In this document: one piece after another, positions 18,943 through 37,803 of the stretch
Position numbering within the stretch: the first letter of the stretch is position 1
Layout: every line of letters begins with the position of its first letter
Assembly (NCBI GenBank): GCA_963669175.1
Contig: OY769902.1
Coordinates: 2,976,001 to 3,040,000 of the forward strand
Length of the DNA stretch: 64,000 nt
DNA from: a bacterium
GTDB lineage: Bacteria; Electryoneota; Electryoneia; Electryoneales; Electryoneaceae
Reading direction: 5' to 3'
The notes under the pieces: model-generated
Told to the model about the DNA's origin: nothing
Database searches by the model: none
Seen by the model: only the letters and a program-made list of their open reading frames with translations
Position numbers and translations under genes: made by a program

Positions 18943-19186
18943 GCAGGCCGTCTTTACCTGTGATTGTATAAGAAGGAACTGCTGATATAGCGATTCCCAT
19001 TATGAATCCGTCATATGGTCATGTGCCAGCTCAGCGAAAGGTCAACTATATAGTTGAAATAAAGGATATGGAAAAAGGGGACTGCCTCCTTTCCCTAGGG
19101 TAAAGCCTTCCCGGCGTGAGCATGGACCGGGAAAGGTGGCTGTACCCTTTTTCTTGAGAGCAGGCAGGAAGTACACGGAAAAGGGG

Positions 19187-19297
19187 ACGGGTGGATGCAA
19201 CCATGCCCTGGTCAACTATCTTACCTGCCGACGTTTGAATACAATACGCAATCTTCTTCTTGTGTACGTCCAGACCGATGTAGTATACTGCCTGCAT
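19187..19297 (-). pseudogene. IS110 (DEDD) transposase N-terminal remnant, 37 codons
   Basis: MQAVYYIGLDVHKKKIAYCIQTSAGKIVDQGMVASTR; IGLDVHK motif; RBS GAGGAGG. Confidence 0.85.
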
Positions 19298-19409
19298 GCC
19301 AACCTCCTCGTGTAAGTACTACGGGTAACCTCGTGTTACGCCTTTAACACAAGTTAGCCCGACATGTGTGCTGCGTCGAGGTTGGCTGCTTCTACTTATG
19401 CATTATAAC
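19189..19409 (-). mobile_element. IS110-family left end plus truncated transposase (221-bp insertion)
   Basis: Absent from the homologous site at 37472; AC duplicated at both junctions; TATAAT abuts the core on the minus strand. Confidence 0.85.
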
Positions 19410-19648
19410 AGTTTCCTTTTCCAGAAATACTTCAGGAATATTCTGCATAAGCGCGAGGAAAAGGATCCCGTCCCCTTTTCCCGGCAATCTCCATTATGAC
19501 GGAACAAAATCGAGAACTGCTGATATATCAAGAATCATGTATTCGGAAACGTATGAATGATTTCTTGTATTTAAACACACAGGTCAAATAACTAATGAAT
19601 GTTCTCGCAATACTATCTCTTTAGGACCACACCAACCAGGGAGGCAGC

Positions 19649-37072: not shown

Positions 37073-37291
37073 ACCATGATTTTGCTGACCGTTACCGGGG
37101 CAACTTCCTTTTCTCCCACATAAACCACCTGCCGTCCCGGTAGCGTGAAGGCCTGGTGATCGGGTTGCTGTCCCTGTGGGATCAGAGCGGTTTCTGATTC
37201 CCCCAGACTGACGCCGTTTCCTCCCACAGGGAACCCGATTCCAGTTCCTGCTAATCAAATATAAAGAATATAAAGCGATTCTCATTATTAA

Positions 37292-37568
37292 TCCGTCATG
37301 TGGTCATGTGCCAGATCAGTGAAAGGTCAACCATATAGTTGGAATAAAGGATATGGAAAAAGGGGACTGCCTCCTTTCCCTGGGGGAAAGCCTTCCCGGT
37401 CTGAGCAGGGATCGGGAAAGGTGGCGGTACCCATTTTCTTGAGAGCAGGCAGGACGTACACGGAAAAGGGGACAGTTTCCTTTTCCAGGAATACTTCAGG
37501 AATATTCCGTATAAACGAGAGGAAAAGGATCCCGTCCCCTTTTCCCGGCAATCATACATTATGACGGA
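37292..37568. mobile_element. Intact 277-bp MITE/REPIN-like 4-REP cassette (empty IS110 site)
   Basis: TCCGTCAT...ATGACGGA ends; uninterrupted AAAAGGGGAC-AGTTTCC at 37464-37480. Confidence 0.75.
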
Positions 37569-37803
37569 ATAAAACCGAGAACAGCTGTATTTTCTTCTTT
37601 CAGTCCTTTTCCTTATACTCAATCGCACTGAAGGGAAAGCGCATTGGAGTGGAAAACTTCTCTGGAGTATACCAGCGATTGGAATCTTGGAGAGACAGAC
37701 CGTATAATCAAAGCTACCTTGGTTTCCTACTCATGTTGGAATCTCCCAGGTCCAGGGGAGACCTGGAGATCGTTTTGCGGCGCCGTAAGCAGGGAGGCTA
37801 TTG

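Follow-up and report, generated by a model that had tools for sequence, protein, structure and literature searches.

Judged from its sequence, the 221-bp insert described here is the left-end remnant of an IS1111-type element of the IS110 family, lying in a REP-like hairpin. It was found in a window of 64,000 nucleotides, by which we mean the whole stretch of bacterial DNA that was analysed. The stump is a dead piece of an element whose kind is known, and its only notable trait is an unusually clean right edge, which falls exactly on the boundary between element and target and forms a junction that is unique in the genome. We put at roughly 50% the probability that the stump arose when the recombinase slipped at an internal GT in a 'half-match' event. 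The stump itself is inert, because the recombinase gene, the RNA and the right end are gone.

Comparison within the window revealed 221 extra bp at 19180-19416 relative to an uninterrupted site at 37464-37480. On the plus strand the locus reads AAAAGGGGAC/GGGTGGATGC...GCATTATAAC/AGTTTCC, and its empty counterpart reads AAAAGGGGACAGTTTCC. The extra DNA can be taken as 19189-19409 or, equally, as 19187-19407, with AC at 19187-19188 and again at 19408-19409, corresponding to GT on the element strand. By BLAST, the repeat unit on either side of the insert matches adjoining stretches of a second unit in the window (genome 3013270-3013473 and 3013472-3013587). Since these stretches are adjacent with a 2-bp overlap, the target keeps every base. 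With the 221 bp taken out, the locus is identical to the commonest empty hairpins of the genome. Read on the minus strand, the insert begins GT-TATAAT, carries an ATG at element position 113 and ends ...GCATCCACCC-GT, the terminal GT being bases 2-3 of transposase codon 37. An initial annotation had described all of this, namely the 221 bp and their coordinates, the AC on both sides, the empty site, the GT-TATAAT start, and an end in codon 37 at CCACCC-GT without loss of target bases; the window letters and the overlapping BLAST flanks bear it out. The features of the locus are collected in Table 1.

Table 1. Features of the stump, of the host repeat unit that it interrupts and of the empty target (window coordinates; element positions count from the left GT)
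Feature	Position	Strand	Remark
Left-end fragment of 221 bp (element positions 1-221, left GT core included)	19189..19409	-	100% identity to two full-length copies
Left GT core copy (AC on the plus strand)	19408..19409	-	GT at the left end in 67/68 distinct related loci; the exception, L058, has GG
Right GT, at once the GT of the target and element positions 222-223 (codon 37)	19187..19188	-	Full copies CCACCC-GT-CCTGCTC; window CCACCC-GT-CCCCTTTTCC
TATAAT, element positions 3-8, -10 half of the predicted circle-junction promoter	19402..19407	-	Its putative -35 partner, TTGACT, belongs to the right end, which the stump lacks
Left arm of the 9-bp sub-terminal inverted repeat, ATAAGTAGA, element positions 11-19	19391..19399	-	Reverse complement at 1460-1468 in full copies
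5' untranslated leader	19298..19407	-	Predicted pairing of GCCAACCUC with GAGGUUGGC over the ribosome-binding site
Transposase codons 1-36 plus 1 nt	19189..19297	-	Frame continues into the flank up to a stop
Right-hand part (element orientation) of the ~318-bp host repeat unit, beginning with the right target arm CCCCTTTTCC	18984..19188		
Left-hand part (element orientation) of the same host unit, with the left target arm GGAAAAGGAAACT at its end	19410..19522		
GAAACT-GT-CCCC as an empty target, in the hairpin loop of GGAAAAGG...CCTTTTCC	37468..37479	-	Inside a second, uninterrupted unit, about 37270-37588

An 83-aa ORF at 19046-19297 consists of the transposase start and read-through of the flank. 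Upstream of it, the leader is predicted to fold with a minimum free energy of -38.3 kcal/mol (z -3.38), GCCAACCUC pairing with GAGGUUGGC just before the ATG. The leaders of related elements hold an equivalent complementary pair of different sequence. The stump is not MITE-like: its right end is missing, and its junction is single-copy in the genome.

When the 5.45-Mb genome was searched by BLAST, the 223 bp that include both GT dinucleotides were found at three other places at 100% identity, and a fifth place was 92% identical over 156 bp. A chance match does not account for this, because the 223 bp are identical at three further places, two of which are full-length elements. The two full-length copies (genome 344245-345721 and 1258861-1260337) are identical to the stump over its 221 bp; between them there are 5 differences. 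Each is 1,475 bp long with one GT counted, starts GT-TATAATGCATAAGTAG and ends ...CCCCTTGACTCTACTTATCATGAAA-GT. Their left flank is GAAAAGGAAACT/GT in both cases, as it is in the third identical copy (a 312-bp stump), and their right flanks are GT/CCCCTTTT and GT/CCCATTTT. GAAACT/GT is common to all three identical copies with a left flank, and GT/CCC(C/A) follows both full copies. Every copy with a readable flank therefore sits at GAAACT-GT-CCC(C/A), which agrees with the target that the initial annotation had supposed.

The transposase of the full element has 348 aa (element positions 113-1159), with 112 nt of leader upstream and 316 nt of non-coding DNA downstream. It matches the Pfam domains DEDD_Tnp_IS110 (PF01548, 2.6e-20) and Transposase_20 (PF02371, 7.5e-17), as well as the NCBIfam model NF033542, 'IS110 family RNA-guided transposase', with a score of 176.7 bits where the cut-off is 140. 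More distantly, it matches the solved recombinases of ISCro4 and IS621 (E 2-4e-6; IS621 E 3.6e-6). Like other IS110 elements, it has no terminal inverted repeats at its tips, and GT stands at both junctions and once in the empty site. The domains, the NCBIfam match and the GT at both junctions together uphold the assignment to the IS110 family with a GT core that was made at the outset. The proposal of a -10 box at the left tip has also held: after circularisation, the TATAAT would be brought behind the TTGACT of the right end (TTGACT, 15 nt, GT and then TATAAT, or TTGACT-17 nt-TATAAT), so that the joined ends would form a promoter. Neither a circle junction nor a deletion intermediate was seen in the read contigs, which drop rare forms.

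Several of these features are described for the IS1111 group (ISEc11, ISPa11, ISKpn4) in the accessible part of PMC11187229 (Siddiquee et al. 2024): a DEDD transposase, a long non-coding region downstream of tnp (here 316 nt, against 112 nt upstream), an RNA in which the complement of the top strand comes 5' of that of the bottom strand, no target duplication beyond the core, and ends that would form a promoter once joined. The sub-terminal inverted repeat departs from that description. It is only 9 bp long here (ATAAGTAGA / TCTACTTAT), with extensions of 8 (+GT) and 7 bp, whereas the repeats of the group have 11-13 bp with extensions of 7 and 3 bp (PMC11187229, same part). The transposase is 59-67% identical to the nearest relatives found, all from Thermodesulfobacteriota-type genomes. 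On these predicted features, the full element joins the IS1111 branch of the RNA-guided IS110 family as a new member, aimed at a REP-like hairpin.

The target is highly repeated in this genome. We counted 84 exact GAAACTGTCCCC 12-mers, against about 0.65 expected by chance according to our own calculation, and nearly all of the 84 sites lie inside hairpins of the form GGAAAAGGAAACTGTCCCCTTTTCC, that is, of the GGAAAAGG...CCTTTTCC type. These hairpins are embedded in an interspersed unit of ~318 bp, for which BLAST gave 38 matches of at least 280 bp and a coverage of up to about 90 copies. As expected of a REP, the hairpin is a short imperfect palindrome with many extragenic copies, yet it lies within a composite unit. 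The initial annotation had spoken of insertion into a REP unit; this name is fair for the REP-like hairpin with its 84 sites, while the whole repeat is a composite.

Some further observations concern the host repeat. The ~318-bp unit (window 18984-19522, interrupted, and 37270-37588) is made up of several hairpins and often contains two IS targets. The Y1 transposase family PF01797 has 10 matches in the genome (for example 2672127 and 5013848), which may be RAYT or IS200-type genes. Outside the window there are also 12 copies of another IS110-family element, unrelated to the first, with an ORF of 378 aa (in G000:C1, for example at 789487, 844704, 886782, 2895576 and 4286714). In 7 of its 12 copies the left end adjoins the end of the ~318-bp unit, after ...AAAA[TC]CGAG, so that two different RNA-guided IS types have this unit as their landing pad.

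Because both the element and the host unit are repeats, and no read contig covers the entire locus, we considered whether the stump is an assembly artefact, the locus truly holding a full-length element or none. Two unitigs run across the unique junction, one 74 nt long at depth 35 and the other 56 nt long at depth 38 and free of differences; this is approximately single-copy depth, the flanks having 22-36. Their support is weak because only 26 letters lie on the IS side, fewer than the 31 letters of the bridging rule. The reads are two public runs of one sample, probably the source of the assembly, in the form of short-read contigs, and are not independent of it. A joint that skips the 221 bp is also present in the read contigs and most likely comes from other copies of the repeat unit. 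We consider an artefact barely credible.

Next, we examined the 316-nt 3' region of the element for a guide RNA. AGGGGAC, the complement of GTCCCCT, occurs at element position 1217 and is followed by a small hairpin and then by GAAACTGT at position 1242. Farther 3' lie a perfect hairpin and, at position 1316, CATGAATGT, a segment similar to the right end CATGAAAGT. In the putative target loop, AGGGGAC is complementary to the top strand of GT-CCCCT, and the following GAAACUGU is complementary to the bottom strand of GAAACT-GT; the second loop contains CAUGAAUGU, which reads the right end. A seek/bridge RNA with guides for this target, AGGGGAC and GAAACTGT, is thus present in the 3' non-coding region, as would be expected if the element is RNA-guided in the way first proposed. 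Complementarity shows the predicted target-loop guides to specify insertion into the loop of the REP-like hairpin, GGAAAAGG-AAACT/GT/CC-CCTTTTCC. The order of the segments, with the top-strand complement 5' of the bottom-strand complement, is that of IS1111, and the relatives are alike in this.

The relatives came from a protein-based scan with one genome per species, which yielded 80 related loci with transposases 59-67% identical to that of the query, mostly in assemblies of Desulfobulbales, Desulfuromonadales and Syntrophales. They have in common a left end GT-TTGAATGCATAAGTA, a right end ...CTTGACTTTACTTATCATGGAT-GT and the same 3' RNA scaffold, while the segments that match the guides of the query differ from locus to locus. 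Guide segments and flanks were extracted from the related loci by anchored patterns and compared with shuffled pairings. The left flank matched the 3'-side guide at a mean of 5.53/8 positions in 68 distinct locus pairs, against 3.37 in shuffled pairs (sd 0.15; highest of 2000 shuffles, 3.87). Positions -1 to -6 matched in 45-67 of the 68 pairs, and positions -7 to -10 only in 10-24. For the right flank and the reverse complement of the 5'-side guide, the mean was 8.0/12 against 6.75 when shuffled (59 pairs; highest of 1000 shuffles, 7.2). The variable RNA segments co-vary with the flanking target.

The 36 of 64 distinct RNA regions that were no longer than 165 nt were aligned. Their consensus fold is an outer stem around two stem-loops, with 38 pairs, 18 of which show double compensatory changes, and the query RNA alone gives the same fold (z -2.57). 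A search of Rfam with one full copy and its flanks returned no family match. The right-end guide tracks the right end, including a G-to-A change on both sides in one sub-lineage and in the query; guide and end matched at 7-9 of 9 positions in nine of ten distinct combinations, the tenth being a regex misalignment. As for the left-end guide, only AAC opposite GTT is consistent, and CTAAC occurs with GTTTG in 10 loci. Two earlier readings were given up. GTTA opposite CTAAC in the query had been taken as a compensatory change, which was withdrawn in view of those 10 loci and of five others in which CAAAC accompanies GTTAG; UGUGAC had been taken as the left-end guide and was replaced after alignment. 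A separate observation concerns L018, L094 and three right ends of G033, where the right junction is GA-CCCC and the left junction GT. The 5'-side guide of these relatives is GGGGUC, the complement of GACCCC, so that their two 'core' copies differ.

With IS621, as described in the accessible part of PMC13626964, the element shares a two-loop RNA, one loop for the target and one for the element ends, a 2-nt core and a REP target. Unlike here, the RNA of IS621 lies upstream of tnp and its core is CT (PMC13626964, same part), and the two proteins are only distantly similar, at the E value given above. A further difference is that the left-end (RD) guide here seems to pair with little beyond GTT.

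What sets the window stump apart is its inner breakpoint. In the full copies this site reads GCATCCACCC-GT-CCTGCTC and the true right junction CATGAAA-GT-CCCCTTTT; the stump reads GCATCCACCC-GT-CCCCTTTT. The two parent sequences share GTCC only, with mismatches right beside it on both sides, and GTCC consists of the core and the two bases with which the right target arm begins. In the mechanism that we propose, the recombinase would have joined the true right junction (CATGAAA-GT-CCCC) to the internal GT at 222-223 (CCACCC-GT-CCTG), the internal site serving as a weak 'half-match' made of the core and two bases of the right target arm. Such a join would remove the 3' 1,254 bp and leave CCACCC-GT-CCCC with the target intact. 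It could have occurred directly in a resident full copy, or by way of a transfer intermediate that was nested or partial.

Each of the 87 GT sites on the top strand of the element was scored against the four guides. The breakpoint matched the left target arm at 2/6, the right target arm at 4/10, the right-end guide at 0/6 and the left-end guide at 1/5 positions; beyond the core, two of the first six right-arm bases match. At least 11 GT sites outscore it as pseudo-targets, the GTCC at position 512 being slightly better, and as a pseudo-donor it ranks near the bottom of the 87 sites, the best being the element's own guide DNA at position 1323 (8/11). It is one of only 4 GTCC among these sites. 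The initial annotation had interpreted the internal end as a cryptic donor-like site, which the donor-binding loop of the RNA would read. The break does lie at GT, the core dinucleotide of the family, but a site that scores so low with both end guides and shares only GTCC with the true right junction makes this idea very improbable, and we abandoned it.

The same GTCC could have been used without any recombinase. A full copy may have lost its 3' 1,254 bp through slippage or end-joining between the GTCC at position 222 and that at the right junction, and a microhomology of exactly 4 bp across the junction, with mismatches directly on both sides, is what such a deletion would leave. The poor guide match of the internal site points the same way, as do other stumps of the family that were made by ordinary means (L003, L113, L115 and L098). 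On the other side stands the endpoint that falls on the element/target boundary to the base. By a rough count, a 3-kb stretch offers ~10^4 possible 4-bp microhomology pairs, while an event anchored at the boundary has 87 GT partners. From these numbers and the position of the endpoint we infer, for a single case, that a process anchored at the IS end, i.e. the recombinase, is favoured, and a recombinase-independent deletion remains a minority explanation with some real weight.

The stump may also have been short already when it entered the empty hairpin, either as a 221-bp mini-circle or by strand transfer with the second join at the internal GT. The initial annotation had called it a mini-insertion, a claim that is unproven because deletion of a full copy in situ would give the same sequence. 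Its left junction is that of a perfect canonical insertion. A stepwise transfer of the top strand, left junction first, has been proposed, and in this 'direct-transfer' route the left-junction transfer is about 10-fold more active than the right and precedes it (10.1101/2025.10.25.684509, accessible part). For ISPpu9, several partial circles and module-only copies are described in the portion of PMC12288879 available to us. The modules of ISPpu9 are bounded by duplicated end boxes, however, and the internal site here has no match to the right-end guide; the junction is single-copy in the genome, and the read contigs contain no circle junction, though contigs cannot show rare forms. We give a truncated insertion slightly less weight than the recombinase-independent deletion. 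In general, the window stump resembles ISPpu9/ssr9 of Pseudomonas putida in that the latter is a REP-targeting IS110 element with partial genome copies, one of which has a tnp fragment (PMC12288879, same portion). Unlike the stump, the ISPpu9 modules keep the right-hand RNA gene as well as their duplicated end boxes (PMC12288879, same portion); in the stump only the left end survives, and its inner edge lacks an end-like box.

A half-match slip of the recombinase is the reading that we prefer. For IS621, half-match recombination has been reported in which the core and one arm are sufficient (Xie et al. 2026 preprint, 10.64898/2026.08.31.748434, accessible part). The breakpoint resembles these events in that it shares the core and the start of the right target arm, and differs in that only 2 arm bases match here. 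That work concerns IS621 in vitro and insertion data from E. coli, not IS1111-type elements, and the part of it available to us describes no internal deletion. Against the slip stand the single event, the poor guide match of the internal site, the lack of a restored target in the other left-end fragments inspected (below), the absence of circles and deletion intermediates from the read contigs, and the fact that GTCC is also expected from a recombinase-independent deletion. Moreover, the excision of IS1111/IS621 elements has been suggested to be mostly single-stranded copy-out with little rejoining of the flank (accessible parts of PMC11187229, 10.64898/2026.08.31.748434 and 10.1101/2025.10.25.684509), and a fixed product with a rejoined flank would be rare for this reason. 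We suggest only tentatively, a little short of even odds, that an IS1111-type RNA-guided recombinase, acting off target on a half-match, left the stump as its natural footprint, and that the rejoined flank became fixed in the chromosome. In such a footprint, the internal GT may pair with only four bases of the right-target guide, a detail that we hold just as tentatively.

Next, we looked at other fragments of the family. This genome contains three left-end fragments and no right-end-only piece. The 312-bp stump (L003) adjoins an unrelated 307-bp repeat; a right half of the host unit is absent within 6 kb, and the remainder of the truncated IS was found nowhere in the genome. The 307-bp repeat (L003:1313-1620; G000:C1:1629069-1629375), for its part, has more than 40 copies at 87-99% identity and starts exactly at the end of the stump. 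The 156-bp relic (L004, G000:C1:4172435-4172589), 92% identical, is the left end of a sister element with the left flank GAGAAGCT-GT, and it sits between tandem units of about 100 bp. In one genome of the same genus, a related element that is 76% identical has the left flank ACCGTCT-GT and is itself cut at residue 217.

Among 19 left ends in five other genomes, the transposase was complete in 15, covering residues 1-337 or 1-338 of the query's 348. The remaining four comprise two that look interrupted (L113 and L115), one with an internal deletion (L098) and one relic of ~30 nt; in L113 and L115, a right end about 3.9 kb downstream speaks for interruption and against a cut. A bias to left-end-only relics, which we had entertained, was dropped, since these five genomes hold 19 left ends and 25 right ends. 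A metagenome scan gave 121 left ends, of which 42 were full length, 65 could not be classed because their contigs were too short, and 14 fell into neither group. L123 was checked by BLAST and the other breaks by eye; an internal GT followed by a CCCC-type flank was absent from the 9 of these 14 that were inspected. The exact 26-nt left end had no match in the metagenome contigs. No target-restoring stump was therefore found among L003, L004, the four of 19 left ends in five genomes and the 9 of 14 metagenome left ends, and the window stump is unusual within the fragments sampled. The portions of PMC13626964 and PMC11187229 available to us make no mention of truncated IS110 products; we do not claim that such stumps are unreported.

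Two of the related loci deserve a description of their own. On the metagenome contig Ga0208371_1000711, a left-end-only piece (L123:4797-5060) has its cut near codon 35, no more than about 8 nt from the position of the window cut; it joins a tandem GGAATTCCGGGGAC array (a REP array) imprecisely, and the target is not restored. In L079 (JARGFN010000061.1), about 135 nt past the transposase stop, the DNA between the right-end-guide sequence and the true right end is gone. The junction there reads ...ATGGATGT/CCCCGGAATT, and both parent sites share ATGGATGTC. As guide DNA and right end have ATGGATGTC in common, the element's own guide DNA is a built-in pseudo-right-end.

In conclusion, the full element belongs to a well-defined IS1111-type lineage from sulfate-reducer-type genomes, in which the RNA, its guides, the target and the ends are readable from the sequence, and its 80 relatives show natural retargeting. 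The stump adds a single, cleanly resolved join of the right boundary of the element to an internal GT. One case is an anecdote and not a finding about mechanism. If the recombinase made it, the stump would be a field example of the half-site recombination lately reported for IS621. If true, it would be an indication from a wild genome that these enzymes are capable of precise double-stranded deletions at sites with little in common beyond the core, and would bear both on the debate between cut-out and copy-out and on the off-target risk of bridge editors.
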